Source: an uncultured Actinomycetota bacterium
GTDB taxonomy: Bacteria > Actinomycetota > Actinomycetes > Propionibacteriales > Nocardioidaceae
NCBI GenBank assembly: GCA_963728555.1
Contig: CAVSKP010000005.1
Span: 21,413-85,412, forward strand
Length of the DNA stretch: 64,000 bases
Direction of reading: 5' to 3'
The notes under the pieces are model-generated. The model had not been told where the DNA came from, did not search any database, and saw nothing but the letters and a program-made list of their open reading frames with translations. Both the position numbers and the translations under genes were made by a program. Positions 42,688-63,342 of this stretch are shown here, one piece after another; the first letter of the stretch is position 1, and every line of letters begins with the position of its first letter.

Positions 42688-43937
42688 TCAGACGGTGGCC
42701 TCGTGCCGGGCTCGGCCGCGGCCGGCTCGGCCGCGACGACGTCCTCGGACTTCATCGACGGGCGGGCGTCGTCGGCGCGACCGAGGCCGGCGTACGCGCG
42801 CCCCATCCGGCTGACGAACTGGTACACGCCGTCCTCCTCGGGGGCCAGCGGTCCCGGGATCGCGTGCGGGCTGGTGAGCCCTCGCTGGACCGACTCGCAG
42901 GCGGCCCAGTCCTGGCGGTTGGTGAGGTCCCAGAAGTCCACGGCGTAGGACGGGTCGAAGCCTTCGCGCTCCGCCACATGGCGCGGGAAGGCCCACGAGC
43001 ACTCGACGAACGTGCGGTCGGCGGCGATCGGCCGCATCGTGTGGGTCATCACGTAGTCGGGGTGCAGGCTGATGAGCAGGTTGGGGAACGCGATGAGGTA
43101 CATCACCGTGCGCATCTCGACCTCGTTGAGACCCTCGATCGCGACACCGCCGCTGCGTCCGTCGAGCGACATGGTGTCGGCGTCCGGGACGAGATCCATC
43201 CAGCCGCCCATCCACTCGCCGACCGGCTCGAGGTTCTCCCCGCTCTGCGGCGGACTGACCCGGCACAGCTCGGGGTGGATGGAGGAGCAGTGGTAACACT
43301 CCTGGTAGTTCTCGGCGATGATCTTCCAGTTCGTCGCGAGCTCGTAGGAGTGAGACGCGACGGTGACCAGGTCCTCGGGCCGGTAGTTGGCGACGATCGC
43401 GTCGAGGTCGCCGGCGTGCTCATCGAACGACCCGGCCTCGTTGCTGGGGTCGACGAAGACCCAGCCGTGCCACTCCACGACGTTGAGCTCGGCCAGCCCG
43501 AACTGCGACTTGTCGAAGTCCTCCAGGTCGCGGAAGCCGCCGGGGGCGTTGCGGAGCGAGCCATCGAGCTTGTAGTTCCAGGCGTGGTACGGGCAGACGA
43601 TCGAGCGCTTCTGGACCGTCACGCCGCAGGGCACGAGCTCATGGCCACGGTGCCGGCAGACGTTCGCGAACGCCCGCAGCACGCCGTCCTCGCCGCGCAC
43701 CAGCAGCACGCCGCCGGCCCCGGTCTCGACGGAGGTCTGGGCACCCAGCTCGGCGAACTTCTCGCCGCGGCCCAGGCACATCCAGCCGGAGAAGATGTTG
43801 GCCTGCTCCCAGTCGTAGACCGCGGGATCGACGTACGCCCGCCGCGGCAGCATCCGCGAGGAGCCGAACGGCGCGTACGCCGCCGCCACGTCGCCCGCCG
43901 GGAGGGGAGCCGTCATGCCACGCAGTTGATTGAACAT
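42688..43937 (-). CDS. Rieske non-heme iron oxygenase, alpha subunit (GbcA/choline monooxygenase/stachydrine demethylase-like); 3' end uncertain
   Basis: NVCRHRG...CPYHAW Rieske motif; NWKIIAENYQECYHCSSIHP iron site; QDWAACE; runs in-frame into vanZ, probable true stop TGA 42688 via a 1-nt slip near 42705. Confidence 0.88.
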
Positions 43938-43947
43938 ACAGTCAATC
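43928..43947. promoter_or_regulatory. TetR (BetI-like) operator 1
   Basis: GATTGAACATACAGTCAATC. Confidence 0.75.
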
Positions 43948-44116
43948 CTAGGTCTCGCGGGTGAGTGTCGTCCAGCGTCCATCATTCCCGATGCACGGTA
44001 CTGACTCCAGAGTCAGTCTCGATCCTCGGCGGGTCTTCGACCGGTCAACGTCGGGCCACCACCAGTATCCTCGGGTCGCCCTGCTTTGAGCGCCTGATCC
44101 GATGACAGGAGCCACC

Positions 44117-45271
44117 GTGGAATTCGCCTTGACCGACGAGCAGCGCAGCATCGTCGAGGTGACCCGCACCTTCGTCGAGCGGGAGCTCTTCCCGCACGAG
44201 GAGGAGGTCGAGCGAACCGGGAAGGCACGCCCCGAGCTGATCGCCCGGATCCGCGCCAAGGCGATCGAAGCCGGGCTGTATGCCGCCAACATGCCCGAGG
44301 AGGTCGGCGGGGCGGGGCTGGACGCGGTGACGCTGGTGCTCTTCGAGAAGGAGCTGGGCAAGGCGAGCTACGCGCTGCACTACACCGGCGTCGCACGCCC
44401 CTCGAACATCCTGATGGCCGGTACGCCGGCGCAGCGCGAGCGGTACCTGCTGCCGTGCGTGCGAGGTGAGCGCACCGACTGCCTCGCCATGACCGAGCCG
44501 GGAGCCGGCTCGGACATGCGGGCCATCCGCACCCGCGCCGTACGAGACGGCGACGGGTGGACCATCCGCGGTACCAAGCACTTCATCAGCCACGCCGACG
44601 AGGCGGACTTCGTGATCCTGCTCGCCCGGACGGGGGCCGACGACGCAGGTCGGCCCGCGATGTCGACGTTCCTCGTCGACCTGGACACCCCGGGGCTGCA
44701 CGTGCACGACGGGTACCGCAACGTGTCACACCGCGGGTACACCAACTCGATCCTGGACTTCGACGACGTCCGCCTGCCCGGCGACGCCCTGCTGGGAGAG
44801 GAGGACAAAGGGCTGGAGCTGGCGGGCGAGTGGCTCGGGTCGACCCGGCTGTCGGTCGCCGCGACCTGCCTCGGGCGCGCGGAGCGAGCCCTCGGCCTGT
44901 CGACGGAGCACGCGGCGCACCGGGAGCAGTTCGGTCAGCCCATCGGCAAGTTCCAGGGGGTCGGCTTCAAGCTCGCCGACATGGCCACCGAGCTGCGGGC
45001 CGCCGAGCTGACGACGCTGTACGCCGCGTGGAAGCGGGACCAGGGCACGGCCGCCGACGCGGACATCGCGATGGCCAAGCTGAAGGCCACCGAGATGCTC
45101 GCCATGGTCGCCGACGAGGCCATCCAGATCCACGGGGGCATGGGCCTGATGGACGAGCTCCCGCTCGAGCGGATCTGGAGGGACGCGCGGATAGAGCGGA
45201 TCTGGGACGGCACGTCGGAGATCCAGAGGCACATCATCTCCCGGTCGCTGCTGCGGCCGCTGGGGGGTTGA
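44117..45271 (+). CDS. Acyl-CoA dehydrogenase (gamma-butyrobetainyl-CoA dehydrogenase-like)
   Basis: AMTEPGAGSD, GTKHFIS, REQFGQPIGKFQG, RIWDGTSEIQRHII; adjacent to caiD; AGGAG RBS before GTG 44117. Confidence 0.88.
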   Translation: MEFALTDEQRSIVEVTRTFVERELFPHEEEVERTGKARPELIARIRAKAIEAGLYAANMPEEVGGAGLDAVTLVLFEKELGKASYALHYTGVARPSNILMAGTPAQRERYLLPCVRGERTDCLAMTEPGAGSDMRAIRTRAVRDGDGWTIRGTKHFISHADEADFVILLARTGADDAGRPAMSTFLVDLDTPGLHVHDGYRNVSHRGYTNSILDFDDVRLPGDALLGEEDKGLELAGEWLGSTRLSVAATCLGRAERALGLSTEHAAHREQFGQPIGKFQGVGFKLADMATELRAAELTTLYAAWKRDQGTAADADIAMAKLKATEMLAMVADEAIQIHGGMGLMDELPLERIWRDARIERIWDGTSEIQRHIISRSLLRPLGG

Positions 45272-45274
45272 ACC

Positions 45275-46066
45275 ATGGAGAACGCCGAGGTGCTCCACCT
45301 CCGCCGCGAGGACGGCGTACTCGAGGTCACCCTCGACCGACCCAAGGCCAACGCCATCGACCTGGCCACCAGCCGTGCGATGGGCCAGGTGTTCGCGGAC
45401 TTCCGTGACGACCCCGAGCTACGGGTCGCCATCGTGCGGACCGCCGGCGACAAGTTCTTCTGCGCCGGCTGGGACCTCAAGGCCGCGGCCGCGGGCGACG
45501 CCGTCGACGGCGACTACGGCGTCGGCGGCTTCGGCGGCCTCCAGGAGCTCCCGGAGCTCAACAAGCCCGTCATCGCGGCCGTCCACGGCCTGGCGATGGG
45601 CGGCGGCTTCGAGCTGGCGCTCTCCTGCGACCTGATCTACGCCTCGGAGAGCACGCAGTTCGGGCTGCCCGAGATCAACGCGGGGACCCTCGCCGACGCC
45701 GCGTCGGTGAAGCTGCCGAAGCGGATGCCCTTCCACGTCGCCATGGACCTCCTCCTCACCGGACGCTGGATGAGCGCCACCGAAGCCGCGCGCTGGGGCC
45801 TGGTCAACGAGGTCCTCCCGAACGACGACGCCGTGCGCGCCCGCGCCTGGGAGACCGCCCGCCTGCTCGCCGCCGGCCCTCCGCTCGTCTTCGCCGCCAT
45901 CAAGGAGGTGACCCGGGTCGCCGCGTCGCTGACGTTCCAGGAGGCCATGGACCTGATCACGAGCAGCCGGCTCCGGACCGTCGCCACCCTGTACACCTCG
46001 GAGGACGAGAAGGAGGGGGCCAGGGCCTTCGCCGAGAAGCGCCCGCCCGTCTGGAAGGGCCGCTGA
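45275..46066 (+). CDS. caiD: Carnitinyl-CoA dehydratase-like crotonase
   Basis: LEVTLDRPKANAID, FRDDPELRVAI, KFFCAGWDLKAAA, FAEKRPPVWKGR closely follow the CaiD sequence as I recall it. Confidence 0.8.
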   Translation: MENAEVLHLRREDGVLEVTLDRPKANAIDLATSRAMGQVFADFRDDPELRVAIVRTAGDKFFCAGWDLKAAAAGDAVDGDYGVGGFGGLQELPELNKPVIAAVHGLAMGGGFELALSCDLIYASESTQFGLPEINAGTLADAASVKLPKRMPFHVAMDLLLTGRWMSATEAARWGLVNEVLPNDDAVRARAWETARLLAAGPPLVFAAIKEVTRVAASLTFQEAMDLITSSRLRTVATLYTSEDEKEGARAFAEKRPPVWKGR

Positions 46067-46132: not shown

Positions 46133-47082
46133 CTAGGTGACCTCGTTCGGAGGGTTGGTTCGGGGAGCGCTGGTTGATCCGCCGCGGTCATCGGTCGGTG
46201 CGAAGGCCAGCAGGTCCGAGGTGGGCGGCACCCAGTAGTAGCTGCCGGTGAGCGGAGCGGTGAAGCGGGTGAGTGCGTCCCGCGGCCCGTCCACACCGGC
46301 CATGCTCTCCAACATCGTGTGGAGTGGCTTCTTGCTGCTGGCGAAGCCGACGAACATGGTCCCGTGGTCGCTGACCGTGCCGAAGGCCGTGTTCCGTCGC
46401 AGCACATGGCCGAAGTCGTCCTGGTCGGTCCGGGCCGCGTGGGAGGTATCAGGCTTCGGGGCGAGTTCGATGCTGTCGGTCTTGGTCCGGCCGATCACCT
46501 CCCCCTGGACGTCGTCGTCGAGGGCCCACCACGCCGCCGCATCATGGGCCCACTGCTGCAGGAGCAGCACCGAACCGCCGGCGCCGGGTGACCCCTCGGG
46601 CACCAGGGCGTAGGCGGGAGCGCTGGCGAGCGTCGGGTTCTCGGTGCCATCCTCGAAGCCGGTGAGGTCGCGGTCTCGGTGGTAGGTCGAGCCCCGCACC
46701 TCGCTGACCAAAGCAGCGAACGGCGCCAGCTTGCGTACCGCGTCGAGTGTCGCGTCGAAGACGACGTCGTACGAGGCCGCCGCGAACCAGAGCGCGAGGT
46801 CATGCTGGGTCGCGGGCATGGCGAAGCCGTCCGAACCGACCACGGCAGCGTCGAAGCCGGTCAGCCCGGTAGGCAGCGTCCCGGGCGACACGCGCGCCCA
46901 GAGCTCGGGGCGGACGCCCGCGACGAGGTTGGTGGCGCCCATGGTGGTCTCGCGCTCGGCCAGGTCGGCGAGCACTCTGACGGCGGCGACCGGATCGGCG
47001 TCGATGAGCAGATCCAGTTCGATGTACGCGTGCGAGGAGGTTCCAACAGCGAAGATGCCAGCCTGGGGGAGGACCTCGACAC
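46133..47082 (-). CDS. Dyp-type peroxidase, frameshifted in a homopolymer at 47065-47069
   Basis: RDLTGFEDGTENP, IGRTK, SHAART, LRRN; adding one C to the C5 run joins GTG 47082 (MSRSSP) to QAGIFAVGTSSHAYIELDL. Confidence 0.88.
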
Positions 47083-47154
47083 GTTCCTACCCGATCAGGC
47101 AGCCGCCTGTCCGGTCGAGAAGACCGGGGGTCTCAGATGTGGGAACCCGGGCGG

Positions 47155-47625
47155 TCAGTCGAAACACTCAGGATTGCTGACGGGGTCCGGGTTGACGGTG
47201 TTGCACACCGATTCGACTCGGCTGTCCAGTGAACTGCCGACAGCGAAGACGACGACCACCAAGGCAACGACGAGACCCGACCAGATCGTCCCGATCAGTC
47301 CAGTGACGAATCCTGCGGTTGCCATGCCGCGACCACCGAGTCGCCCGTGCGATTGGTCGATCTCGCGGGTGGCCCTTCGAGCCGTGATCATGGCGGGAAT
47401 ACCGGTGAACAGGCCGAAGAACAACAGAGAAAGGATGCCAAGCACCAGCGCGGTTGTTGCCCCGCCCGAGTTCGGCGGGATGGGGGTGACTCCGCTGGGG
47501 TATATGGCGGGCGGGTAGGCGGCTGGCGCCCTGTGCTCGGTCCATTCGGAGCCGTTCCAGTAGCGCTGCTGCGACGGGTCCTGCGGATCCGGGAACCAAC
47601 CCGCGCTCGGAGTGCTGGCGCTCAT
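47155..47625 (-). CDS. DUF2510 + DUF4190 membrane protein
   Basis: AGWFPDPQDPSQQRYWNGSEWT; ALVLGILSLL...GRGMATAGFVTG. Confidence 0.85.
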   Translation of the reverse strand: MSASTPSAGWFPDPQDPSQQRYWNGSEWTEHRAPAAYPPAIYPSGVTPIPPNSGGATTALVLGILSLLFFGLFTGIPAMITARRATREIDQSHGRLGGRGMATAGFVTGLIGTIWSGLVVALVVVVFAVGSSLDSRVESVCNTVNPDPVSNPECFD

Positions 47626-47844
47626 GCGTTGCCCTTCACTGCTGACTCCCCATGGGTGTGCTGGTCCGACATGCGATCACGTCCCTGCTCGAGTGCGCCG
47701 GTCATGGTGCGGGCGCCTGCGGCATTAGACCTCGACCGCCTCGGCGCTGTTCGAGGAACGGCAGAAAACCGGCCGAACGGTGATCGACACCGTTGCGTAG
47801 TACCTGGCTACCGATTCAGGTGAGGCCACAGCCCGGGTGAGCGT

Positions 47845-49068
47845 TCATCGGCGATGAGTGCGCGGATCCGGGTCAGCGCCCAGCGAGCGCATGGCTCGCT
47901 GTCCCATGTGGAGCAGGAAGTGGAGGCTAGCCGCCCAGTTGTCCATGGTGGTATCGATGTCGCAGCCGGCCGCCTCGGCACGCTCAGCCGGCCAGTCCTC
48001 AGAGACGGGGAAGTCGGGGCAGAGCAGGGCGACGTCGTCCACGACGAAGCACAGCATTTGGAGCGAGCCCGAAGCAGCGGCAGCGAAGCGCACGTCCGCC
48101 TCGTCCCCTCGCCATCCGAAGTCACGCAGCCCCGCCAGGTACGCGTCCGTCGCCGAGCGCTCGTGCTCGACTCCGTCGGCCGGGTCCACCGAGTCGACGC
48201 ACACGTCAAGTGCGACGTGGTGGCCGAGGTCGGCGCCGATCGGCGCCGTGCCGAAGAAGCCCCAGTCGATGACGACGGTGCGCTCACCTTTCGCAGTGCG
48301 CTCACGGAACAGGTTGCTCGCCTTGGCGTCGTGGTGTGCGACCGTGGCCGGCAGTGTGGCGAGGCGCACGCACATCTGCTCGCAAGAACTGACCACGTCG
48401 ACGAGGGCTTGGCGGCTCGACACCGGCACCCGGTCTCGGAGGAGCGGGTGGGCCCAGCAGTCGGCGTGTGCCAGGGCGTGGCCGCCGCTGAGTCCGAGGA
48501 AGGTCGAGGCCCAGCCGCTCAACCAGTCCCGAGCGGTCCACGAGAGCGCCAGGACTTCGTCCACCATCGAGGTCCCCTGGGCGGCGAAGCCGCCGAGGTC
48601 GTAGGCCATCTCGGCGAGCTCGCCGACGGACCTCGCCGGACGGTCGGTGCCCTCGTCGAGCTCCTCCAGCCACAGCCAGGCGGTCGTGTCGTCCACCTCC
48701 TCGGTGGCCCAACAGCCGACAGGACGCATGGGGTGCTCGAACCTGTCGAGCAGGCCGCAGCGACGTGCCAACACCTCGCGCTTCCAGTAGTTCCAGTCGG
48801 ACGGCTCGCGGATGTAGCCGTCGATGTCGAGCGGAGTCCCACTCAGGTCGGGCAGCATGACGACCTTGAGGATGGTGCTCCACTGCTTCTCGCGAGCTCC
48901 GCCGACGGTGGCCGTGCCCGCGACGCGATGGATGCCGGCAGTGCCCGGGTTGTACGCCGGGACGTCGAGCCATTCGCTGGTCCATGTCGTGGGCTGCGCG
49001 GCGGGATCCCCGAGGATCCGCCGGACGACCGGTGCTAGCCCCTCGGCCGTCAACAACGGAGGCTCCAT
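47845..49068 (-). CDS. Aminoglycoside-phosphotransferase / choline-kinase-fold protein
   Basis: TILKV, WKREV, HHDAKASNLF catalytic loop, IDWG. Confidence 0.75.
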   Translation of the reverse strand: MEPPLLTAEGLAPVVRRILGDPAAQPTTWTSEWLDVPAYNPGTAGIHRVAGTATVGGAREKQWSTILKVVMLPDLSGTPLDIDGYIREPSDWNYWKREVLARRCGLLDRFEHPMRPVGCWATEEVDDTTAWLWLEELDEGTDRPARSVGELAEMAYDLGGFAAQGTSMVDEVLALSWTARDWLSGWASTFLGLSGGHALAHADCWAHPLLRDRVPVSSRQALVDVVSSCEQMCVRLATLPATVAHHDAKASNLFRERTAKGERTVVIDWGFFGTAPIGADLGHHVALDVCVDSVDPADGVEHERSATDAYLAGLRDFGWRGDEADVRFAAAASGSLQMLCFVVDDVALLCPDFPVSEDWPAERAEAAGCDIDTTMDNWAASLHFLLHMGQRAMRSLGADPDPRTHRR

Positions 49069-49154
49069 GTGTCCCCCTCCATACGCGGACCGGGCCCGTT
49101 CCGGACTTTATCCGCAGGTCTGGATCCGTTGATGGGCCCCTGGCTACCGGGGAG

Positions 49155-49814
49155 TCACCCCGCCAGTAAGGCGTGCTCGGCGGGGGACAGGAACCCTCGG
49201 GCGACCGCGGCGGCTTGGAGGTGGGCGGCGCGGCGTCCCGGCTCGGGGTCGGCAGTGGCCAGGTTGGGACGGAACGCGATGCTGCGGATGTCGTCGACGC
49301 CGGCCCAGTGCAACCAGTCCTCGAAGTACGGCTGCTGGAAGTCGTTGCCGAATCCCGGGCCACGGTCGGGGCCGTAGACCGCGCCGGTGTAGATGACGGC
49401 GACCCGCTTGTTCTCCAGCAGGCCCGTGTAGCCCGCTGCGGGGTCGAAGCTGAAGATCATGCCGGGCTGGCTGATGACGTCGATGAGCTGCTTGAGGATG
49501 TAGGGCACCGACGCGTTCCACATCGGCACCGTGAAGAGGTAGTAGTCGGCGGAGTCGAACCGCTTGAAGGTCTCGTACGCGCGGCGCCATGCGGCGGCCT
49601 CGTCGCCCTCGGGGTCGGCGCCGGCGAAGACCGCCATCTTGGCGGCCGCCGCGGGCGGGCCGAACTCGGGCAACGTGCCGTCCCAGAGGTCCCAGTGCTC
49701 GACCGTGACCTCGGGGTGGATCGCGCGTAGTTCATCGAGGAACGTGGCCGCGATGGCGAGGGTCTCGGAACGTTCGCCGCGGGGCGAGGCGGAGATGTGC
49801 AACAGGGTGGTCAT
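49155..49814 (-). CDS. azoR: FMN-dependent NADH-azoreductase
   Basis: LHISASPRGERSET, TVPMWNASVPYILKQLID, FSFDPAAGYTGL. Confidence 0.9.
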   Translation of the reverse strand: MTTLLHISASPRGERSETLAIAATFLDELRAIHPEVTVEHWDLWDGTLPEFGPPAAAAKMAVFAGADPEGDEAAAWRRAYETFKRFDSADYYLFTVPMWNASVPYILKQLIDVISQPGMIFSFDPAAGYTGLLENKRVAVIYTGAVYGPDRGPGFGNDFQQPYFEDWLHWAGVDDIRSIAFRPNLATADPEPGRRAAHLQAAAVARGFLSPAEHALLAG

Positions 49815-49836
49815 CGTAGTTCCTTCTCGAGCGAGT

Positions 49837-49882
49837 TATGTGCTTACGCACATAGTTATAGCAAAGTGTGTGCGCACGCACA
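49837..49882. promoter_or_regulatory. Tandem MarR operators
   Basis: TATGTGC-TTAC-GCACATA (49837-49854) and TGTGC-GCAC-GCACA (49869-49882), centres 30 bp apart. Confidence 0.7.
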
Positions 49883-49902
49883 AGATCTGGTAGGCTTCGA
49901 GG

Positions 49903-50346
49903 GTGGCAACAGAGCTCACCGAGACGTGGGGCGCGCTGCTGAAGGTGCACGCCGCGCTGGTCCCGCGCCTGGACCGCGAGCTCCAGGACGCCCACGGTCT
50001 GCCCTTGACGTGGTACGACGTGCTGCTCGAGCTCGACGGGGCCCCCCATCGGCGGCTCACCATGGGACAGCTCGGCTCCGTCGCCTCGGTGAGCCGCACC
50101 CGCGTCAGCCGGGTCGTTGACGACCTGGTCCGGGCGGGCCTGGTGACTCGAGAGCCGAACCCGCACGACGGTCGATCGGCTTTCGCAGCACTGACCCCGG
50201 CAGGTCGGACGGCATTGCGCAAGTCGGCGCCGACCTACCTCGCCGCCGTCCACCGTGAGTTCGCCGACCACCTGACACCGCACGAGAGCGAGGTCCTGGC
50301 GGGAGCTCTTCGCAAGGTGCTGGCCGCGAGCGAGCCCAGGTCGTGA
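49903..50346 (+). CDS. MarR family regulator
   Basis: LTWYDVLLEL, LTMGQL, SRTRVSRVVDDL, DGRSAFAALT. Confidence 0.9.
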   Translation: MATELTETWGALLKVHAALVPRLDRELQDAHGLPLTWYDVLLELDGAPHRRLTMGQLGSVASVSRTRVSRVVDDLVRAGLVTREPNPHDGRSAFAALTPAGRTALRKSAPTYLAAVHREFADHLTPHESEVLAGALRKVLAASEPRS

Positions 50347-50357
50347 CCCGCGCCCCG

Positions 50358-50457
50358 GGCCGGCCTACGTCTCGCCGGCGAACGAGCCGATCGACTCGTG
50401 CTGACCCGATCGCTTGCCGAGCCAGCGGTACAGCAGGAAGCCCAGCGCGACGGCGAG
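50358..50457. repeat. Direct repeat, left copy (duplicate of the permease 3' end)
   Basis: 50365-50457 is identical to 51752-51844 over 93 bp; extends to 100 bp with one mismatch. Confidence 0.95.
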
Positions 50458-54851: not shown

Positions 54852-54893
54852 GCCACCTCCGCAGCTCCATCCGAATTCTGACACGCTCACACA

Positions 54894-54913
54894 GACTGAA
54901 CATTCAGTCAATC
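54894..54913. promoter_or_regulatory. TetR operator 2
   Basis: GACTGAACATTCAGTCAATC. Confidence 0.75.
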
Positions 54914-54981
54914 GCGGTGAGATCCTGGACCTCGGCCGGAGATCCGGCCGGCACCCTTGTGGCCCTCCCCGAGCGTCCCTA

Positions 54982-55001
54982 AACTGAACGCTCAGTCAAA
55001 C
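54982..55001. promoter_or_regulatory. TetR operator 3
   Basis: AACTGAACGCTCAGTCAAAC, just upstream of the GAGGAG RBS of the aminotransferase. Confidence 0.72.
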
Positions 55002-55013: not shown

Positions 55014-56409
55014 GTGACCACCTCCGTCACCACTGACGAACCCATTGGCGAAACCATCGACACCCTGCTCGAGTCCGAGTCCGAGGCGTTCGTGCGGCGC
55101 CAGCCACGCAGCACCGCCATGATCGCCGAGGCCGGCGCCGTTCTCGCCGGCGGCGCTACTTCCAACTGGCAGATCGCCCAGCCGCAGGCCGTGTGGATGA
55201 GCCACGGCCAGGGGCCCCACGTCTGGGACGTGGACGGCAACGAGTACGTCGACATGCACGGCGGGTACGGCGCCGCCATCGCCGGCCACGCCCACCCCGC
55301 CATCGTGGAGGCCGTGACCCGTCAGGTCTCACGCGGTACGCACTTCGCCCAGCCCACCGAGGACGCCATCTGGGTGGCGACCGAGCTCGCCCGCCGCTTC
55401 GGCCTGCCCCAGTGGCGGTTCGCCAACTCGGGCACCGAGGCCACCATGGACGCGATCCACCTGATGCGGGCGCTGAAGGGCCGCGACCTCATCATCAAGG
55501 TGGAGGGTTGCTACCACGGCCACCACGACTCGGTGCAGGTCTCGGTGCTGCCCGAGCCCGAGGAGGTCGGCCCGGCCGACGCGCCGTACCGCGTCCCCGG
55601 CAACACCGGCATCCCGCAGGCGATCATGGACCTGATCGTCGTGGTGCCCTTCAACGACCTGGGCGCCGTCGAGCGCGCCCTGGCCGAGCACCGCGGACAG
55701 ATCGCGGGGATGATCCTCGAGCCGATCATGATGAACGCCGGCATCATCCCGCCGGACGACGGCTACCTCGCCGGTCTCAAGGAGCTCCTCCACGCCGAGG
55801 ACTGCTTCCTCACCTTCGACGAGGTCAAGACCGGCTTCACGACCGGACCCGCGGGGGCTACCGGGAGGTACGGCGTCACGCCGGACATCGTCTGCCTCGC
55901 CAAGGCCCTCGGTGGCGGAATCTCCGTCGCCGCGCTGGGTGGTACCGACGAAGTCATGTCCGCCATCGCCGACGGGAGGTACGAGCAGGTCGGCACGTTC
56001 AACGGCAACCCGCTGGCGATGGCCGCCGCACGCGCGAACCTCAGCCAGGTCCTCAACGAGGAGGGGTACGCCCGCCTCGATGCCCTGGCCGCGCGTGCCA
56101 GGGAGGGCTTCGAGCGGCACATCGCCGACAACGGGCTCGCCGTGGCACGTGGTCAGCGTCGGCGCCAAGGGATGCGTGGCGTTCACGGGCGAGCCCGTCC
56201 GCAACTACCGCGACTTCCTCGAGGTCGACGACCGCTGGGGTCACCTGCATTGGCTGATGCAGCACAATGGCGGGGTGTTCCTGCCGCCGTGGGGCAAGGT
56301 CGAGCAGTGGCTGCTGTCCGTGCAGCACACCGAGGACGACGTCGACCTTCTCGTCTCCAACTTCGGTCGGCTGGCCGAGGTGGCCGGTCAGACCTCTGGC
56401 GCCGCCTGA
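55014..56409 (+). CDS. Class III PLP aminotransferase (HemL/GSA-AM-like paralog), frameshift near 56136-56141
   Basis: WDVDGNEYVD, SGTEATM, GCYHGH, ILEP, FDEVKTGF, LAKALGGG, GTFNGNP; C-terminus continues in the 55912-56409 frame. Confidence 0.88.
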
Positions 56410-57539
56410 TGGCGGGCGGCGCCCTGCGCCTCACCTCGCTGACGAAGTCGTTCGGCGACGTCGTCGCCGTCGACGGCATCGACCTCGACCTGCCGGCCGG
56501 CGAGTTCTGCTCGCTGCTCGGTGCGTCGGGGTGCGGCAAGACCACGACCCTGCGGATGATCGCGGGATTCGAGAGGCCGGACTCCGGCCAGATCCTGCTC
56601 GACGGCAAGGACATGGCGCAGGAGCCGCCGCACCGGCGCCCGGTCAACACCGTGTTCCAGAGCTACGCCCTGTTCCCGCTGATGACGGTCCGGGAGAACG
56701 TCGCCTTCGGGCTGCGCTACCAGAACGTCGACAAGGCCACCATCGACCGCCGGGTCTCGGAGGCCCTGGACGTCGCCCGCATCGGCGAGCTCGCCAAGCG
56801 CCGCCCCGCCCAGCTGTCCGGTGGTCAGCAGCAGCGCGTCGCCCTGGCCCGTGCCCTGGTGCTCAACCCGAAGGTGCTGTTGCTCGACGAGCCGCTCGGG
56901 GCCCTGGACGCCCAGCTCCGCAAGTACCTCCAGCTCCAGCTGCGCCAGCTCCAGCGCGACCTCGGCATCACCTTCGTCTACGTCACCCACGACCAGGAGG
57001 AGGCCCTGACGATGAGTGACCGCATCGCGGTCATCGCCGAGGGCAAGGTCGAGCAGGTCGGCGCACCGGAGGAGATCTACTCACGTCCCGCGACGGCGTA
57101 CGTCGCCGGGTTCCTCGGGTCCGCCAACATCTTCGACGCCGACGTCACCGACGTCTCGTCGAGCACCGCCACCTGCACGTCCTTGGGCCGCACCATCGCC
57201 GCCGAGGTCACCGGCGACTGCCCGCGCGGCGAGGCCGCGATCGTGGTCCGCCCCGAGAGGATCGCCGTCGACGCCGAGTCCGCGCCCGGCCCGACCGGCC
57301 ACAACCGCCTGACCGGAACGGTCCTCGACGTCGTGTACCTCGGCGCCTCGACCCAGGTGCGCGTGGACGTCGGGGACGACCACGTCTTGCTCGTGCAGGT
57401 CGCCAACCAGGCCGGCCCCCGCTCTTTCACGGCCACCCCCGGCGAGCGCGTCGCCTGCTGGTTCTCTCCCACTGCCGTCCAGGTACTGCGCCGGAGCGAG
57501 GCGAAGCTGCCGGACCCGGTCGAGGTCGAGATCGGGTAG
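56409..57539 (+). CDS. potA: Polyamine-type ABC ATPase (PotA-like)
   Basis: GASGCGKTT, VFQSYALFP, LSGGQQQR, LLDEP, YVTHDQEEA, TOBE C-terminus. Confidence 0.9.
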   Translation: MAGGALRLTSLTKSFGDVVAVDGIDLDLPAGEFCSLLGASGCGKTTTLRMIAGFERPDSGQILLDGKDMAQEPPHRRPVNTVFQSYALFPLMTVRENVAFGLRYQNVDKATIDRRVSEALDVARIGELAKRRPAQLSGGQQQRVALARALVLNPKVLLLDEPLGALDAQLRKYLQLQLRQLQRDLGITFVYVTHDQEEALTMSDRIAVIAEGKVEQVGAPEEIYSRPATAYVAGFLGSANIFDADVTDVSSSTATCTSLGRTIAAEVTGDCPRGEAAIVVRPERIAVDAESAPGPTGHNRLTGTVLDVVYLGASTQVRVDVGDDHVLLVQVANQAGPRSFTATPGERVACWFSPTAVQVLRRSEAKLPDPVEVEIG

Positions 57540-57656: not shown

Positions 57657-58316
57657 TCAGGCCTTGGACTTCTTGCGGTTCTTGACGCGGCGCGGGCCGG
57701 GCGAGAGGCCGAGGCGCTGCTCGGCGTACTCCATCGCGATGTCGTGGGCGACGTCGGAGGTGAGCTCGGGGTCGTCGAGGGCGACCTGGGTGGAAAGGCC
57801 GTCGAGGACGACGGTGAACATCAAGGCGAAGCGACGCAGGTCGATGCCGGCGTCGACGTCGCCGGCCTCCTGGCCCTCGCGCACGATCCGCTCGACGAGG
57901 TCGCGCCAGCGGCTGTCGAGCTCGACGCGGGCCTCGCGTACCTCGGGGTGTCGCAGCGCCGTCGACCACAGGTCCAGCCACAGACCCCACGAGCCGGTCA
58001 CCTCTCCGGGGAGCTGCGGCACGCAGGACCACTCCACCAGCATCGAGAGCCGGCGGCGGAAGTCCTTCTCGTCGTCGAGCAGCTTGGCGGCGGCGTCGTA
58101 GTAGGTCTCCTCGGAGAACCGGAGCGCGTCGACGAGCAGCCGGTCGCGGGTGCCGAAGTAGTAGATGACCAGGCCGGAGCTGGTGCCGGCGCGCTTGGCG
58201 ACATCGGCGATCCGGGTGTCGCCGTACCCGCGCTCGCTGATCAGCTCCGCAGCCGCCTGGAGCATTGCCCGGCGGCGCGCCTCGTTGCCCTCGGTCTGCG
58301 GCGCTGCTTCGGCCAT
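57657..58316 (-). CDS. TetR regulator, BetI-like
   Basis: TRIADVAKRAGTSSGLVIYYFGTRD HTH; WLDLW C-terminal domain; divergent from the oxidoreductase operon. Confidence 0.9.
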   Translation of the reverse strand: MAEAAPQTEGNEARRRAMLQAAAELISERGYGDTRIADVAKRAGTSSGLVIYYFGTRDRLLVDALRFSEETYYDAAAKLLDDEKDFRRRLSMLVEWSCVPQLPGEVTGSWGLWLDLWSTALRHPEVREARVELDSRWRDLVERIVREGQEAGDVDAGIDLRRFALMFTVVLDGLSTQVALDDPELTSDVAHDIAMEYAEQRLGLSPGPRRVKNRKKSKA

Positions 58317-58384
58317 GACGGTCGCGTCTCCTCCTCGCCCGGTGACCGGTGCGGCCCCTTGCCACGGACGCTATCACCTCGTTA

Positions 58385-58404
58385 GATTGAACAGTCAGTC
58401 AAAC
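58385..58404. promoter_or_regulatory. TetR operator 4
   Basis: GATTGAACAGTCAGTCAAAC. Confidence 0.75.
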
Positions 58405-58454: not shown

Positions 58455-60119
58455 ATGGCAGGCTCCTACGACGCGATCGTGGTCGGCGGCGGGCACAACG
58501 GCCTGGTGGCCGCGGCGTACCTCGCCCGCTCCGGCGCCCGCACGGTCGTGCTCGAGGGCCGCAGCAAGGTCGGCGGCGCGGCCACGACCGAGCAGCCGTG
58601 GCCCGACGCACCTCACCTCTCGGTCACCCGCCTGTCGTACGTCATGAGCCTGATGCCGGCGACCATCGTCAACGAGCTGAAGCTCGCGCAGTACGGCTAC
58701 AAGGTCCACCCGATGGGCCCGTACTTCCAGGCGTTCCCCGAGGGCGGCTCGCTGACGATCTACGAGGACGACGAGGCGCGGACGTACGACGAGATCGCGC
58801 GGTGGTCGAAGAAGGACGCCGAGGCCTGGCCGAAGTGGAACGACTGGCTCAAGGGCATCGCCGACGTGATGGGCCCGCTGCTGACCCGCGTGCCGCCGAC
58901 GATCGGGTCCCACTCGCCCTCCGACCTCGCGGACCTCGGCAGGCTGGTCTGGAAGAACCGTGGCGTCGACACCCGCATGGTCGCCGACATCACCCGGCTG
59001 ATGAGCATGAGCATCGCGGACCTGCTCGACGACTGGTTCGAGTCCTCCCAGGTCAAGGGCGCGCTCGCGGTCAACGGCGTGATCGGTACGTGGGCCGGTC
59101 CGTTCGCGCCGGGGACGGCGTACGTGATGGCCCACCACTCCATCGGTGACGTCGGCGACGCCGGCGGGCACAGCCAGCAGCTCGGCAGCTGGGGCTACCC
59201 CGAGGGCGGCATGGGCGCGGTGTCCGCGGCGATCGCCAGGTCGGCCGGCGAGCTGGGCGTCGAGATCCGCACCAGCTCGCGCGTCGAGTCGGTGAGCTCC
59301 AGCAACGGCCGCGCGACCGGCGTGGTGCTGGAGAACGGCGACCAGCTGAGCGCCCCGATCGTGGTCACCAGCCTGCACCCCAAGACCGCGTTCCTCGACC
59401 ACCTGCCGCGCACCGAGCTGCCCGAGGACTTCGTCGCCGACATCGAGCGCTGGAACACCCGCTCCGGAGTGGTGAAGGTCAACCTGGCCCTGGCGGAGCT
59501 GCCGCGGTTCACGTCGGTCCCGGACACCGACCGCGACGTCGATGGCGTCCCCGAGCACCTCACCGGCTCGGTCGAGATGTCGCCGTCGATGGAGTTCATC
59601 GAGCGGGCGTTCCAAGATGCGCGCGAGGGCCGCGCCGCGCTGCGGCCGTTCAGTGACGGCGTCATCCCGACGAGCCTCGACAAGACGATGAACCCCGACG
59701 GCACGCACATCCTGAGCCTGTTCACGCAGTACGTCCCGCACGAGTGGAGCGAAGCGCCGCACACCGAGGAGCTCGAGGCCTACACGGACCGGCTGATCGA
59801 TCTCTACGACCAGGTCGCGCCCGGCTTCGCCGCATCGGTGACGCATCGTGACATCGTGGGACCGCACGAGATGCAGGAGGAGTACGGACTCATCGGCGGC
59901 AACATCTTCCACGGCGAGCTCACGCCCGAGCAGCTGTTCCACATGCGTCCGGCACCGGGGTACGCCGACTACCGCACGCCGATCGCCGGCCTCTACAACG
60001 CCAGCTCCGCCACGCACGGTGGCGGCGGCGTCTGCGGCATCCCCGGCTGGCAGGCCGCCAGGGCGGCCATCCACGACCGCTCGTCGCGGTGGCAGCGGCT
60101 GCGCGGCAGGCTCGCTTGA
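58455..60119 (+). CDS. Phytoene-desaturase-superfamily FAD oxidoreductase (PYROXD2-like)
   Basis: IVVGGGHNGLVAAAYL, LSYVMSLM, GTAYVMAHH, GGMGAVS, GGNIFHG, HGGGGVCGIPG. Confidence 0.85.
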   Translation: MAGSYDAIVVGGGHNGLVAAAYLARSGARTVVLEGRSKVGGAATTEQPWPDAPHLSVTRLSYVMSLMPATIVNELKLAQYGYKVHPMGPYFQAFPEGGSLTIYEDDEARTYDEIARWSKKDAEAWPKWNDWLKGIADVMGPLLTRVPPTIGSHSPSDLADLGRLVWKNRGVDTRMVADITRLMSMSIADLLDDWFESSQVKGALAVNGVIGTWAGPFAPGTAYVMAHHSIGDVGDAGGHSQQLGSWGYPEGGMGAVSAAIARSAGELGVEIRTSSRVESVSSSNGRATGVVLENGDQLSAPIVVTSLHPKTAFLDHLPRTELPEDFVADIERWNTRSGVVKVNLALAELPRFTSVPDTDRDVDGVPEHLTGSVEMSPSMEFIERAFQDAREGRAALRPFSDGVIPTSLDKTMNPDGTHILSLFTQYVPHEWSEAPHTEELEAYTDRLIDLYDQVAPGFAASVTHRDIVGPHEMQEEYGLIGGNIFHGELTPEQLFHMRPAPGYADYRTPIAGLYNASSATHGGGGVCGIPGWQAARAAIHDRSSRWQRLRGRLA

Positions 60120-62170
60120 ACGAGGCCCTCGCGGCCGCGCTCGAAGCCCGGTCCGTCGCACTGGTGGGGGCGAGCCCGCGGCCGGGCAGCCTGGGCCGGC
60201 GGATGGTCGGCGAGGTGCTGCGGTCGCCGGGTTTCGAGCGGGTCTGGCTCGTCAACCCGTCGTACGACGAGGTGGCCGGCCTGCCCTGTCTCCCCGACCT
60301 GCACGCCCTGGGCGAGGCACCCGACCTGGTGCTGATGGGCGTCGGCGACGGGCGCCTCGTCGAGCAGCTGACCGCGGCGGCGAAGGTCGGCGCGCGTGGC
60401 GCCGTGGTGTTCGGCAGCGCGCACGCGGACGGCGTACGCGACGACCTGCGGCGCATCGCCACGGACGCCGGCATGGCCCTGGTCGGCGCCGGGTGCATGG
60501 GGTTCTGGAACGTACGTCGCGGCGTGCGGGCCATGGGCTACACCGAGCGCGAGGACCTGCCTGTGGGCCCGGTCTCGCTGGTCACCCACTCGGGGTCGGT
60601 GTTCTCGACGATGCTGCGCACGCGGCTGCGGCTCGGCTTCGACCTGGTGGTGTCGTCGGGGCAGGAGCTCGTCACGACCACCGCCGACTACGTCGACCAC
60701 GTCGTGGCGCACACCGAGACCAAGGTGCTCGCCCTCGTGCTCGAGACGATCCGGGGCGGCGACCGGCTGCGCTGGTCGCTGCGGCGTGCCCGTGAGGCGG
60801 GCATCGAGGTCGTGCTGCTCCCGGTCGGCCACACCCCCCTCGGCTCGGCCATGGTGGCCGCACATTCCGGCGCGGTGGCCGGCGGGTCGGCGGCGTGGGA
60901 GGCGCTGGCCGACGACATCGCCGGCCACCTCGTCGCCGACCTCGCCGAGCTCGGCGACACGCTCGCGCTCCTCTCCTCGACCCGCCGCCCCCGGCCGGGC
61001 ACGGGCATCGCGACCGTGCACGACTCGGGCGCCGAGCGCAGCCTGGTCGCGGACCTCGCGCACGGCTTGGACGTACCCTTCGCCGACCTGTCCCCGGCCA
61101 CACTCGCCGCGCTGGGGGACCGCCTCGAGCCCGGCCTCGAGCCCGGCAACCCGCTGGACGTCTGGAACAGCGGCGCGGACACGCACCGGGTCTTCGCCGA
61201 CTGCCTGAGGATGATCGCTGCCGATCCCGCGGTCGGGGTGACCGGGCTGGCGGTCGACCTGGTGCCCGAGTACGACGGCGACACGTCCTACCCCGACGCG
61301 ATGCTGGAGGTCGCGGCCGCCACCAGCGAGCCGGTGGTCGTGCTGGCGGGCCTGCCCGGGGCGATCGACGAGGACGCGGCCGGCCGGCTGCGCGACGCGG
61401 GCATCCCGGTGCTGGAGGGCTTCCGCAGCGGGTTGCTCGCGCTGCGCCATCTGCTGGACGCCGTCGACCGGCCGGGTCCTGACCAACTGCTGGTCGAGGA
61501 AGGCGCGCTGGCGCCTGTCGCGAGACCCCGTGAGTGGCAAGACCTCCCCGCCGCCTACGGCATCCCGACCCCGGCGGAACGCGGGGCCGCGACGGCGGAT
61601 GAAGCAGCCCTGGCGGCCCGCGACCTCGGCTTCCCCGTCGTCCTGAAGACCTCGGCGCCCGGCATCACCCACCGCTCCGACGTGGCCGGCGTGGTCACCG
61701 GCCTGCACGACGCCGCGGCCGTCGAGGCGGCGTACGCCGACCTGGCTGCCCGCCTCGGACCCGACGTCACGGTTCACGAGCAGGTTCCGGCGGGCGTCGA
61801 GGTGTCGGTCGGCCTCGTGCACGACCACGCACTCGGCCCGATGGTGGTGGTGGCCGCCGGCGGCGTGCTGGTCGAGCTGCTGGCCGATCGGGCCGTCGCC
61901 CTTCCCCCGCTGACCCGCGAGGGCGCGCACCGGATGCTGGACCGCCTGCGGCTGCGGCCGATGCTCGACGGGTTCCGTGGCGCACCTCCGGTCGACATCG
62001 ACGCACTGGTCGACGTCGTCGTCGCGGTGTCACTGCTCGCGCGCGACCACGGCGACGAGCTCGCCGCCCTCGACCTGAACCCCGTCGTCGTCACGCCGCA
62101 CGGCGCGGTCGCGGTCGACGTGCTGATCGTTCCCCGAAGAGATGACCAGCCCGAGGAGACCCCGACATGA
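60116..62170 (+). CDS. ADP-forming acyl-CoA synthetase (acetate-CoA ligase family, CoA-binding + ATP-grasp)
   Basis: VALVGAS, VNP, HSGSV, AHSGAVAG phospho-His, GNPLDVW, FPVVLK..HRSDVAGV, LDLNPV; TTG overlaps the upstream TGA. Confidence 0.88.
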   Translation: MNEALAAALEARSVALVGASPRPGSLGRRMVGEVLRSPGFERVWLVNPSYDEVAGLPCLPDLHALGEAPDLVLMGVGDGRLVEQLTAAAKVGARGAVVFGSAHADGVRDDLRRIATDAGMALVGAGCMGFWNVRRGVRAMGYTEREDLPVGPVSLVTHSGSVFSTMLRTRLRLGFDLVVSSGQELVTTTADYVDHVVAHTETKVLALVLETIRGGDRLRWSLRRAREAGIEVVLLPVGHTPLGSAMVAAHSGAVAGGSAAWEALADDIAGHLVADLAELGDTLALLSSTRRPRPGTGIATVHDSGAERSLVADLAHGLDVPFADLSPATLAALGDRLEPGLEPGNPLDVWNSGADTHRVFADCLRMIAADPAVGVTGLAVDLVPEYDGDTSYPDAMLEVAAATSEPVVVLAGLPGAIDEDAAGRLRDAGIPVLEGFRSGLLALRHLLDAVDRPGPDQLLVEEGALAPVARPREWQDLPAAYGIPTPAERGAATADEAALAARDLGFPVVLKTSAPGITHRSDVAGVVTGLHDAAAVEAAYADLAARLGPDVTVHEQVPAGVEVSVGLVHDHALGPMVVVAAGGVLVELLADRAVALPPLTREGAHRMLDRLRLRPMLDGFRGAPPVDIDALVDVVVAVSLLARDHGDELAALDLNPVVVTPHGAVAVDVLIVPRRDDQPEETPT

Positions 62171-63342
62171 GCACCCTCAGCGAGCAGGACCTGGAGATCC
62201 GGCGCCGGGCGCGGGAGTTCGTGGACGACCTGGTGCAGTACGAGGTGGAGACCGAGCTCGCCGGCGGCGTACAGCCGGCGGGGCTGACCGAGAAGCTCCA
62301 CCACGCGGCCCTGGAGAGCGGGCTGTACGCCACGAACATGCCCGACTCCGTGGGCGGCCCGGGCTTCACCGCCCTCCAGCAGGTACTCGTCCAGGAGCAG
62401 GTCGGGCGTATCACCAACGGCCTCGCCTGGTGTCTGCACACCCCGCCGCAGTGGTGGGTCGAGGTGGCGACGCGGGAGCAGCTCGACCGGTGGCTGCTGC
62501 CGGCCGTGCGCGGCGAGCGGCACGAGTGCTACGCCATCACCGAGGAGCACGCCGGGTCCGACGTGAGCGACCTTGCCACGACCGCACGCCGGGAGGGCGA
62601 CGAGTACGTCGTGAACGGCGTCAAGTGGCACGTGACGTCGTACAACGTGGCCGACTACTGCTTCGTGCAGGCGGTGATCACCGACGGTCCGAACGCCGGC
62701 GAGCACGTGTTGCTGGTCGTGGACCTGCCGACGCCCGGCATCGAGGTGGTCCGCACGCCGGAGTACTCGCACCACATCGCCGACCACCACCCGATCGTGT
62801 CGTTCACCGACGTCCGCATCCCGGCCGCGCAGCTGATCGGCGTCGAGGGACAGGGCATGACCTTCACCCAGGACTGGTTCCGCTTCGAGCGCGTCATGGT
62901 CGCGGCGCGGTGCGTCGGCGCGTCCGCGCGGCTGGTGGACGAGATGACGGAGTTCGCGGGGTCTCGGATGGTCGGGGGGCAGCGGCTGGGTGACTACCAG
63001 CTGGTCACCGGCATGCTCGCCGACTCGGCGACCGAGCTCTTCGCCGCGCGCGCCGCGTTGTACGACGTGGCGCGCGCGATCGACGCCGGCGAGGACCGCA
63101 AGGTGCTCCACGCCCGCGCCTCGATGGTGAAGCTGCTCTGCTCCGAGACCGCCGGACGCGTCGCCGACCGCGCGGTGCAGGTGTTCGGCGGGCGCGGCTA
63201 CATGCGCGAGAACGTCGCCGAGCGGATGTTCCGTGAGCTCCGCGTCGAGCGCATCTGGGAGGGCGCCTCGGAGATCCAGCGCGTCATCGTCGGCCAGCAG
63301 CTCCTCAAGCGAGGCCCCGCCGCGGTGCTCGGCGACGGCTGA
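62167..63342 (+). CDS. Acyl-CoA dehydrogenase
   Basis: YAITEEHAGSD, NGVKWHVT, FGGRGYM, RIWEGASEIQR. Confidence 0.9.
   Translation: MSTLSEQDLEIRRRAREFVDDLVQYEVETELAGGVQPAGLTEKLHHAALESGLYATNMPDSVGGPGFTALQQVLVQEQVGRITNGLAWCLHTPPQWWVEVATREQLDRWLLPAVRGERHECYAITEEHAGSDVSDLATTARREGDEYVVNGVKWHVTSYNVADYCFVQAVITDGPNAGEHVLLVVDLPTPGIEVVRTPEYSHHIADHHPIVSFTDVRIPAAQLIGVEGQGMTFTQDWFRFERVMVAARCVGASARLVDEMTEFAGSRMVGGQRLGDYQLVTGMLADSATELFAARAALYDVARAIDAGEDRKVLHARASMVKLLCSETAGRVADRAVQVFGGRGYMRENVAERMFRELRVERIWEGASEIQRVIVGQQLLKRGPAAVLGDG

Follow-up and report, generated by a model that had tools for sequence, protein, structure and literature searches.

Genes of the locus

The DNA described here, referred to as the window, is a stretch of 64,000 nucleotides from an uncultured bacterium of the Nocardioidaceae (Actinomycetota; assembly GCA_963728555.1, contig CAVSKP010000005.1, positions 21,413 to 85,412), and it contains a conserved set of ten genes that are presumably controlled by a TetR repressor encoded among them. 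This putative regulon comprises a Rieske oxygenase, the transport proteins PotC, PotB, PotD and PotA, a class-III aminotransferase, the TetR repressor, a PYROXD2-like flavoprotein, an ADP-forming CoA ligase and an acyl-CoA dehydrogenase, ACAD2. The window has a G+C content of ~70%; genes were called by the GC content of the third codon position (GC3) and named by Pfam and NCBIfam.

The Rieske alpha subunit lies in an open reading frame (ORF) at 42189-43985, with the likely gene at 42688..43916 on the reverse strand (Pfam Rieske and Ring_hydroxyl_A). On the same strand follow the ABC permease genes potC (51752-52627) and potB (52624-53577; both BPD_transp_1), which overlap by 4 nt and whose order is conserved, the start of potB being set by GC3 and by the length of its orthologues, and then potD (53574-54821; SBP_bac_8), encoding a substrate-binding lipoprotein of the PotD/PotF family. 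The GSAM-like aminotransferase (55017-56409; Aminotran_3) and the ABC ATPase gene potA (56409-57539; ABC_tran and TOBE_2), whose start overlaps the aminotransferase stop, run on the forward strand. The repressor gene (57657-58316, reverse strand; TetR_N and TetR_C_6, the latter a BetI-type C-terminal domain) precedes three forward genes: the FAD oxidoreductase of the PYROXD2 family within the CrtI superfamily (58455-60119), the single-chain ADP-forming acyl-CoA ligase (60089-62170; CoA_binding_2, Succ_CoA_lig and ATP-grasp_5) and ACAD2 (62167-63342; ACAD N, M and C domains), which shares its first 4 nt with the end of the ligase gene.

Next to the Rieske gene, the forward strand encodes a second acyl-CoA dehydrogenase, ACAD1 (44102-45271), and an enoyl-CoA hydratase with CaiD as its best match (45275-46066). 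These are followed at 46133-51210 by six unrelated genes (a DyP peroxidase, a DUF2510/DUF4190 protein, an APH-like kinase, a flavodoxin-like reductase, MarR and HxlR). A sequence-only reading of this DNA had treated 42688-63342 as one cluster and regulon. All the gene types it listed were recovered by GC3 and the family models; the interval itself is not contiguous, and only the ten core genes can be kept as the regulon.

Conservation of the gene set

Related loci were collected with the FAD protein as query against a set of genomes with a single representative for each GTDB species. The best 80 of 278 genome stretches holding a relative of this protein were each viewed within ±10 kb, and gene order was compared by tblastn with all window proteins. 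Across these 80 loci, from Nocardioides, Mycobacterium/Mycolicibacterium and Jatrophihabitans and with FAD proteins 72-90% identical to that of the window, the order Rieske(-) potC(-) potB(-) potD(-) / aminotransferase(+) potA(+) / tetR(-) / FAD(+) ligase(+) ACAD2(+) is kept, and in every case tetR and the FAD gene are divergent. For two loci (L081 and L083) gene calling bore out this order and revealed no conserved neighbours beyond the Rieske gene or beyond ACAD2. A Rieske orthologue, 62-84% identical, stands next to potC in 53 of the 80 loci, in most of them within ~150 bp. Importer, transaminase, flavoenzyme, ligase, one acyl-CoA dehydrogenase and the Rieske enzyme, which the sequence-only reading had grouped, are thus held together both by synteny and by the operator described below, and its proposed search for cluster conservation returned the same gene order in several genera. 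Partial matches in public sequencing runs came from soil and root metagenomes only, with no RNA runs among them.

ACAD1, the hydratase and the six genes of 46133-51210 are absent from all 80 loci. Elsewhere in Nocardioides the ACAD1-hydratase pair forms a separate two-gene unit that adjoins MDMPI_N and two-component genes; in Nocardioides islandensis it lies ~11 kb past ACAD2, behind cell-wall genes. Homology of the window to these native loci starts exactly at a GTG start codon at 44117, where the native upstream region has been lost, and no operator precedes the pair in its native contexts in two relatives (N. islandensis and a metagenome-assembled genome). Moreover, in the closest relative (L004) a Ppx/GppA phosphatase and a SulP/STAS permease (L004 134-3497) lie between the operator of the Rieske gene and potC, and the window carries a different insertion of 7.7 kb at the same junction, which makes the Rieske/potC junction an insertion hot spot. 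The CaiD-like hydratase beside the Rieske gene is peculiar to this strain and was brought there by a strain-specific rearrangement; ACAD1, the CaiD-like hydratase and the six genes that follow them (46.1-51.2 kb) lie outside the system. Of the two acyl-CoA dehydrogenases that had been assigned to the pathway both exist, and only ACAD2 is a regulon member.

The mycobacterial loci differ by an addition. Between ligase and ACAD2, and divergent from ACAD2, they carry a Cupin_3 gene and a DAO-family FAD oxidoreductase, whose best models are the glycine oxidase ThiO and the sarcosine oxidase beta subunit SoxB. The oxidoreductase was found in 54 and the cupin in 49 of the 80 loci.

Further genes were observed in this region. 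Four mycobacterial loci (L012, L019, L072 and L081, ~13.4-14.9 kb) encode an extra, longer acyl-CoA dehydrogenase of ~427-512 aa right after the ligase, ~30% identical to ACAD1, besides the DAO, the cupin and ACAD2. A gene resembling 2,4-diaminopentanoate dehydrogenase (native amine dehydrogenase family) lies near ACAD2 in a mycobacterial locus (L023 16966-19308) and in a Nocardioides locus (L008 16650-17810); in L023 it is joined by a lipid-transfer/thiolase-like gene, and no operator was seen before these genes in either locus.

A shared operator

A repeated site came to light on reading three divergent intergenic regions of the window. Its core, TGAACNNNCAGTCAA, occurs in 4 exact copies, at 43931, 54897, 54985 and 58388, against 0.00 expected, and no fifth copy is present in the window even when 2 mismatches are allowed. 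All four copies precede units of the regulon. The Rieske copy (TTGATTGAACATACAGTCAA, 43926..43945) is situated ~10 nt upstream of the likely Rieske start (MTAPLP, 43916). Two copies share the divergent potD/aminotransferase intergenic region (54892..54911 and 54980..54999), the second with a -10-like left half, TAAACT, ~30 nt before the aminotransferase start. The fourth copy (TAGATTGAACAGTCAGTCAA, 58383..58402) lies upstream of the FAD gene and contains the -10 box (TAGATT, 58383-58388) of a sigma-70-like promoter, the only one that was predicted between 43.8 and 63.5 kb.

From 133 sites of all loci a 20-bp near-palindrome with the consensus TAGAyTGA-ACrs-TCAGTCAA was derived. Allowing one mismatch, the operator was found upstream of the FAD gene in 78 of 79 related loci, in the potD/aminotransferase intergenic region in all 68, and upstream of the Rieske gene in 46 of 53. 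Its position before ACAD2 depends on the arrangement: where ACAD2 is displaced from the ligase by 1.3-7.5 kb, 48 of 49 loci have an operator upstream of it, compared with 1 of 15 where it directly follows the ligase. Altogether these places account for ~94% of the 259 operator matches in 1.56 Mb, and the rest are mostly further sites upstream of Rieske genes. A scan of metagenomes with the operator yielded 80 loci, and most high-GC contigs among them carry genes of the cluster, more diverged in sequence, beside the site. In one metagenome locus the operator stands directly upstream of the DAO-cupin pair and in another directly upstream of the DAO gene alone, so the two genes should be counted in the regulon wherever they are present.

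The distribution of this site supports the view that the ten core genes are a co-regulated unit, and the TetR protein is the presumed binder. It scores 79 bits against the BetI model, far from the cutoff of 201, and has only the TetR_C_6 domain type in common with BetI. An Rfam scan of the whole window gave no riboswitch or other RNA family that would name a ligand.

Two further sites were considered. The perfect palindrome CTGACTCCAGAGTCAG (CTGACTC-CA-GAGTCAG) at 44001-44016, ~55 bp beyond the Rieske operator, is kept in N. islandensis (L003 2800-2815) and may be a second regulatory site; it was not accepted as an operator of ACAD1, since in N. islandensis, too, it is part of the region upstream of the Rieske gene. 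A similar site, GTTGACTGAccGTTCAATC, occurs in seven metagenome contigs (L098, L106, L119, L125, L131, L138 and L160) directly before ORFs of ~200 aa, one of which was tested and proved to be another TetR gene. This suggests the operator of a paralogous repressor family, and these sites were set aside as a paralogous system.

The Rieske oxygenase and the PYROXD2-family flavoprotein

The nearest solved structures of the Rieske protein are Stc2 (3vca, 151 bits) and CntA (6y8j, 129 bits), whereas aromatic ring-hydroxylating oxygenases reach at most 79 bits. The top NCBIfam match is GbcA, at 179 bits well under its cutoff of 670. The Rieske [2Fe-2S] motif CxH...CxxH is present as 'CRHRGH...CPYHAW' and the iron motif (E/D)xxHxxxxH as NWKIIAENYQECYHCSSIHPE; the stretch 'ENYQECYH....H' of the translation holds the iron-ligand histidines. 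By analogy with CntA, the Glu of this motif is presumably at the bridging position, where most ring-hydroxylating oxygenases have Asp. Stc2 is a stachydrine demethylase and CntA a carnitine monooxygenase, and together with GbcA they act on quaternary ammonium compounds. By these similarities the protein is assigned to the GbcA/Stc2/CntA group of N-demethylating and C-N-cleaving enzymes, in agreement with the class given in the sequence-only reading.

The flavoprotein carries the N-terminal dinucleotide-binding motif 'VVGGGHNGL' and aligns over its full length with PYROXD2 of the oyster (BLASTP: 39% identity, E 2e-119, residues 2-541 versus 40-580). A search of 1.84 billion representatives gave 16,426 matches, and between ranks ~26 and ~53 of these stand PYROXD2 clusters of animals (oyster, mayfly, flatworm), themselves ranking ~26th-32nd, and a homologue from a choanoflagellate. 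Moreover, an orthologue with 84% identity is named PYROXD2 in UniProt. Carotenoid models score far below their cutoffs (CrtO 238 bits versus 1000; CrtI family 78 versus 238). Taken as a whole, the alignments identify the flavoprotein as a true PYROXD2 homologue, as had been proposed; it differs from the mitochondrial protein of animals in having no N-terminal presequence.

In humans, PYROXD2 is linked to infantile mitochondrial disease, and no enzymatic function is described in the PYROXD2 literature that was searched. Genetically, human PYROXD2 is tied to trimethylamine and dimethylamine (PMC3169529) as well as to N2-acetyl,N6,N6-dimethyllysine (PMC13352909).

The neighbourhood of more remote relatives was informative in two cases. 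In one distant lineage a Rieske gene whose product is 45% identical to that of the window (E 3e-102) is translationally coupled, with its stop overlapped by 4 nt, to a PYROXD2-like gene with 43% identity, and the pairing is therefore older than the cluster described here. In another, a PYROXD2-like gene with 49% identity occurs with a homologous binding protein (35% identity, E 3e-84), an acyl-CoA dehydrogenase, a DAO, an amidohydrolase and an amidase. Two further distant contexts were uninformative.

The DddX-like ligase and ACAD2

The best solved relative of the ligase is DddX (7cm9; 238 bits, 28% identity over 693 aa), and for its mid-domain DddX is the only match in the PDB. DddX of Psychrobacter is an ATP-dependent lyase of dimethylsulfoniopropionate (DMSP), which ligates its substrate to CoA and then eliminates dimethyl sulfide (PMC8163506). 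Both proteins are single-chain ligases of the ACD superfamily with ~700 aa. The phospho-histidine His292 is kept, 'AAHSGA' aligning with 'ANAHSGA' of DddX, and the equivalents of His292 and of the cation-pi residue Trp391, the latter within an NPLD(V/L)W motif, are invariant in an alignment of 71 sequences. For the base Glu432 the alignments disagree: in the multiple alignment of the 71 sequences it faces an invariant Glu (E-[YFH]-D-[GD]-D), whereas in the pairwise alignment by HMMER it falls within an insertion. The second cation-pi residue, Phe435, is not kept, with Gly or Asp in its column, and Tyr181 and Asp208 are replaced by Ala and Ser. Furthermore, the settings differ, as DddX is accompanied by a BCCT transporter and acrylate genes, and the window ligase stands in an amine-related context with an acyl-CoA dehydrogenase directly downstream. 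By sequence, no solved structure is closer to the ligase than the lyase-type DddX.

ACAD2 is an ordinary short/medium-chain-type acyl-CoA dehydrogenase, and its conserved C-terminal motif, with the sequence 'WEGASEIQ', contains a Glu that we take to be at the position of the catalytic base. An exact look-up of the ACAD2 of the window returned no record. Its top NCBIfam match is the acryloyl-CoA reductase AcrC, at 181 bits against a cutoff of 640. An assignment as glutaryl-CoA dehydrogenase was not favoured by the scores. Nor did they favour CaiA for either dehydrogenase (145 bits for ACAD2 and 180 for ACAD1, cutoff 540), which is the top match of neither.

The importer and the transaminase

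Binding protein, two permeases and a TOBE-domain ATPase constitute the full PotABCD architecture. The nearest solved structures of the binding protein are PotD/PotF proteins, while the corresponding equivalog models, with cutoffs of 582-636, are matched at only 64-66 bits. Compared with E. coli PotD, the equivalents of E36, D168, W229 and D257 are kept, and the importer shares its four-component architecture and the fold family of its binding protein with the PotABCD and PotFGHI systems. The ligand residues W34, E171 and W255 are changed to Tyr, Thr and Asp/Val, respectively, and there are extra invariant acidic residues. In 68 orthologous binding proteins Y79, D81, Y82, D214, D215, W277, D280, D310 and D312 are invariant, and these acidic and aromatic residues are predicted to line a pocket for a cation. 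A further difference to the known systems is that potA is transcribed here with the transaminase, divergent from potDBC.

The aminotransferase has GSAM enzymes as its nearest solved structures and a GSAM subfamily model as its best NCBIfam match (309 bits versus a cutoff of 398). The HemL model TIGR00713 gives 300 bits on the N-terminal 381 aa, below its cutoff of 527, and the context is catabolic.

Proposed pathway and alternative explanations

To judge from synteny and operator, the ten genes are a real, conserved and co-regulated catabolic system, composed of known enzyme families in a combination that was not found described in the literature searched. We consider it somewhat probable that this is a TetR-repressed regulon for the uptake and oxidative breakdown of a cationic amine, widespread in soil Actinomycetota. 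The substrate is probably N-methylated. Evidence for N-methyl groups comes by analogy from the substrates of all characterised relatives in the Rieske clade, the BetI-type domain of the regulator, the sarcosine-oxidase-like DAO and the human PYROXD2 genetics, and evidence for a polyamine-like skeleton comes in the same manner from the transporter and the transaminase. A substrate with one methylated and one free amino group would accommodate both lines of evidence and is a reasonable guess.

In the proposed mechanism a positively charged amine would be taken up by the PotABCD-type importer through the invariant acidic and aromatic pocket of its binding protein. Rieske enzyme and PYROXD2-family flavoprotein might then carry out successive oxidative N-dealkylations from the quaternary via the tertiary to the secondary amine, to which the sarcosine-oxidase-like DAO and the small cupin of mycobacteria could add a further step. 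The GSAM-like transaminase would remove the resulting or a pre-existing primary amino group. Finally, the DddX-like ligase may convert an amino- or onium-carboxylic acid to its CoA thioester, possibly eliminating an amine from the beta position to yield an enoyl-CoA, ACAD2 would process the acyl-CoA, and an inducer, either the substrate or an intermediate, would release the TetR repressor. In its most specific form, this reading makes PYROXD2-family flavoproteins amine N-dealkylases, as an example tertiary-amine demethylases, that act right after a Rieske enzyme of the Stc2/CntA type, and makes the regulon a complete, undescribed route from a quaternary or tertiary methylated amine via the primary amine to an oxo-acid or acyl-CoA, with the amine-eliminating DddX-like ligase as the CoA-dependent step; this stronger version is put forward tentatively, as a less probable idea.

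Stepwise N-demethylation of betaines is an established theme. Glycine betaine is demethylated by GbcAB and then by flavoprotein demethylases, stachydrine by Stc2, and hydroxyproline betaine by the Rieske enzyme HpbB1C1 and the FAD enzyme HpbA. With these systems the regulon has in common a Rieske enzyme of the Stc2/CntA/GbcA group, FAD amine oxidoreductases and a BetI-type TetR. It differs in its flavoprotein, which belongs to the PYROXD2/CrtI family and not to the DgcA, SoxB or HpbA types, in its Pot-type importer in place of ProX or BCCT transporters, in the integral CoA ligase and acyl-CoA dehydrogenase, and in that no reductase partner is encoded and the scores stay below the equivalog thresholds.

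Several observations weigh against the breakdown of an N-methylated amine. No protein of the set reaches an NCBIfam equivalog cutoff, and all activities are deduced from family resemblance. The ligands for which PotD-type binding proteins are chiefly known are polyamines without methyl groups. The conserved set, as seen in the window cluster, L081 and L083, includes neither a reductase nor a ferredoxin as partner of the Rieske enzyme, the reductase in L083 belonging to paa genes, and the conserved set also has no aldehyde dehydrogenase and no folate or formaldehyde-handling (one-carbon) gene. The DAO-cupin pair is absent within 10 kb of the Nocardioides loci, and a three-step demethylation is therefore not encoded locally there. 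Moreover, a minimal tetR-FAD-ligase-ACAD2 module without transporter, transaminase or Rieske gene exists (L007 and L008), which implies that the FAD enzyme may act on an acid or acyl-CoA and not on an amine; the transporters flanking minimal modules (L007, L008 and L072) were inspected for a hint at the substrate and none was informative.

Among the alternatives, an unmethylated polyamine such as spermidine, norspermidine, 1,3-diaminopropane or a carboxyethyl or aminopropyl derivative fares best, and we regard it as unlikely yet worth keeping in mind. Transaminase and flavoenzyme would turn the aminopropyl end into an N-substituted beta-alanine, the ligase would form the CoA ester and eliminate the diamine to give acryloyl-CoA, ACAD2 would interconvert acryloyl-CoA and propionyl-CoA, and the Rieske enzyme would cleave a secondary C-N bond. 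Such a scheme is consistent with the importer and its PotD-type acidic and aromatic contacts, with a transaminase and transporter in one divergon, with the equivalents of the DddX His, Trp and Glu in the ligase (the Glu in the multiple alignment only) and with AcrC as the top match of ACAD2, which is far under its cutoff and as a match generic for short-chain acyl-CoA dehydrogenases. The quaternary ammonium substrates known for the Rieske clade speak against it, as do the BetI-type TetR, the sarcosine-oxidase-like DAO and the methylamine genetics of PYROXD2, all of which point to N-methyl groups.

The sequence-only reading had envisaged a gamma-butyrobetaine-like omega-(methyl)amino acid that is ligated to CoA, desaturated by an acyl-CoA dehydrogenase, and hydrated by the CaiD-type enzyme in analogy to the Bco route of rhizobia, the Rieske enzyme acting as demethylase. 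It could draw on BcoAB of S. meliloti, which is a gamma-butyrobetaine:CoA ligase (PMC8364193), on CaiD as the best NCBIfam match of the hydratase and on the position of the hydratase operon ~170 bp from the Rieske operator in this strain. A CoA ligase and an acyl-CoA dehydrogenase, presumably acting on an onium- or amino-acyl chain, are indeed shared with the rhizobial Bco (BcoAB ligase, BcoC dehydrogenase, BcoD hydratase) and E. coli Cai systems, which in contrast to the regulon have a hydratase. Here the hydratase and ACAD1 are missing from every related locus, the pair stands in another context without operator in N. islandensis and a metagenome-assembled genome, its native upstream region is lost at the start codon, the hydratase reaches 302 bits against the CaiD cutoff of 500, neither dehydrogenase has CaiA as best match, and the scheme gives the transaminase no role. 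Since the hydratase is not a regulon member, the analogy to the route from gamma-butyrobetaine to carnitine falls, and we regard this model as improbable. Co-regulation, the absence of which was to refute that reading, was thus borne out by the operator for the ten core genes and failed for the ACAD1-hydratase pair.

A sulfonium substrate, either DMSP or S-methylmethionine after transamination and decarboxylation, would make the ligase a true DddX-type lyase that yields dimethyl sulfide and acryloyl-CoA. In its favour are DddX as the closest full-length solved structure and sole PDB match of the mid-domain, the conserved equivalents of His292, Trp391 and, in the multiple alignment only, Glu432, the activity of a DddX-like enzyme with only 23% identity to DddX (PMC13543886) and Actinobacteria that make dimethyl sulfide from DMSP without known lyases (PMC8163506). 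However, the identity is only 28%, with the replacements of Phe435, Tyr181 and Asp208 named above, the hosts are soil and rhizosphere bacteria, and DMSP cleavage has no use for a Rieske enzyme of the N-demethylase type, for a DAO or for a polyamine-type binding protein, so that we give this explanation very little credence. Hardly more credible is that the genes are mere neighbours without a common pathway, or act on non-amines such as aromatics or fatty acids: all families are broad and no equivalog cutoff is reached, but shared operator and synteny across genera contradict it, as does an ACAD2 that keeps its operator even when displaced by 7 kb.

Sequence anomalies and surroundings of the regulon

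Compared with seven Nocardioides-type homologues that span the site and with a ~98%-identical soil-metagenome contig of 573 nt, the aminotransferase gene carries a 1-bp insertion near 56133 (56133-56138), and because of this extra base it reads as an 860-aa fusion ORF of aminotransferase and PotA. Similarly, the Rieske ORF and a VanZ gene are joined in one reading frame that extends to 42189, and the Rieske stop TGA at 42688-42690 is one base out of frame. The Rieske gene of N. islandensis ends with '...ATV*' at a TGA corresponding to 42688 of the window, so the start coordinate used in the sequence-only reading coincides with the expected Rieske stop; the gene for the VanZ-family membrane protein (42189-42641) follows the Rieske gene in N. 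islandensis, too. A third defect affects a threonine-synthase-like PALP gene (16722-19415), which is frameshifted near 17825, has its natural C-terminus ('...ADDEVVLLNTGAGVIYPDTVTVD...*') in the +1 frame and continues as a long ORF into the next gene, encoding an M1 peptidase lipoprotein. With three indel-type defects in 64 kb, errors of the assembly are a better explanation than pseudogenes. Such indels probably account for both the interrupted aminotransferase and the fusion of Rieske and VanZ genes, and a true aminotransferase pseudogene was not favoured in view of the PALP frameshift and the one-base shift of the Rieske stop in the same window.

Further features were recorded in the surroundings. 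A complete-looking L-rhamnose cluster unrelated to the regulon occupies 19627-33412 (LacI regulator, sugar ABC transporter, RhaM mutarotase, RhaA-like isomerase, fused aldolase/short-chain dehydrogenase, FGGY kinase and LutABC-like lactate-utilisation genes). Two tandem genes for family-5 (peptide/nickel-type) solute-binding proteins at 36577-40768 are followed by a cytosine-deaminase-like amidohydrolase (41005-42192) that is not conserved next to the regulon. The codon-position signal is weak at 47000-47800, where the DUF2510/DUF4190 membrane protein (47155-47625) is the sole ORF.

Biological significance

As a summary, a widespread soil-actinobacterial regulon, present in fast-growing mycobacteria, Nocardioides and Jatrophihabitans, is now defined with its operator signature, and the strains, the repressor/operator pair and the binding protein make its substrate directly screenable. 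Publicly available strains with the cluster are Nocardioides islandensis KCTC 19275, Mycolicibacterium psychrotolerans P7, M. chubuense DSM 44219 and M. rhodesiae DSM 44223. Moreover, the system extends the family of DddX-type ligases and possible lyases into Actinomycetota, where such enzymes could release volatile amines or dimethyl sulfide. Finally, a close bacterial homologue of PYROXD2 is placed in an amine-catabolic context beside a Rieske enzyme of the demethylase type, by which the function of PYROXD2 becomes tractable in a bacterial experiment. If the proposed role in N-dealkylation is true, this bacterial operon would be the first biochemical context for the human orphan protein PYROXD2.

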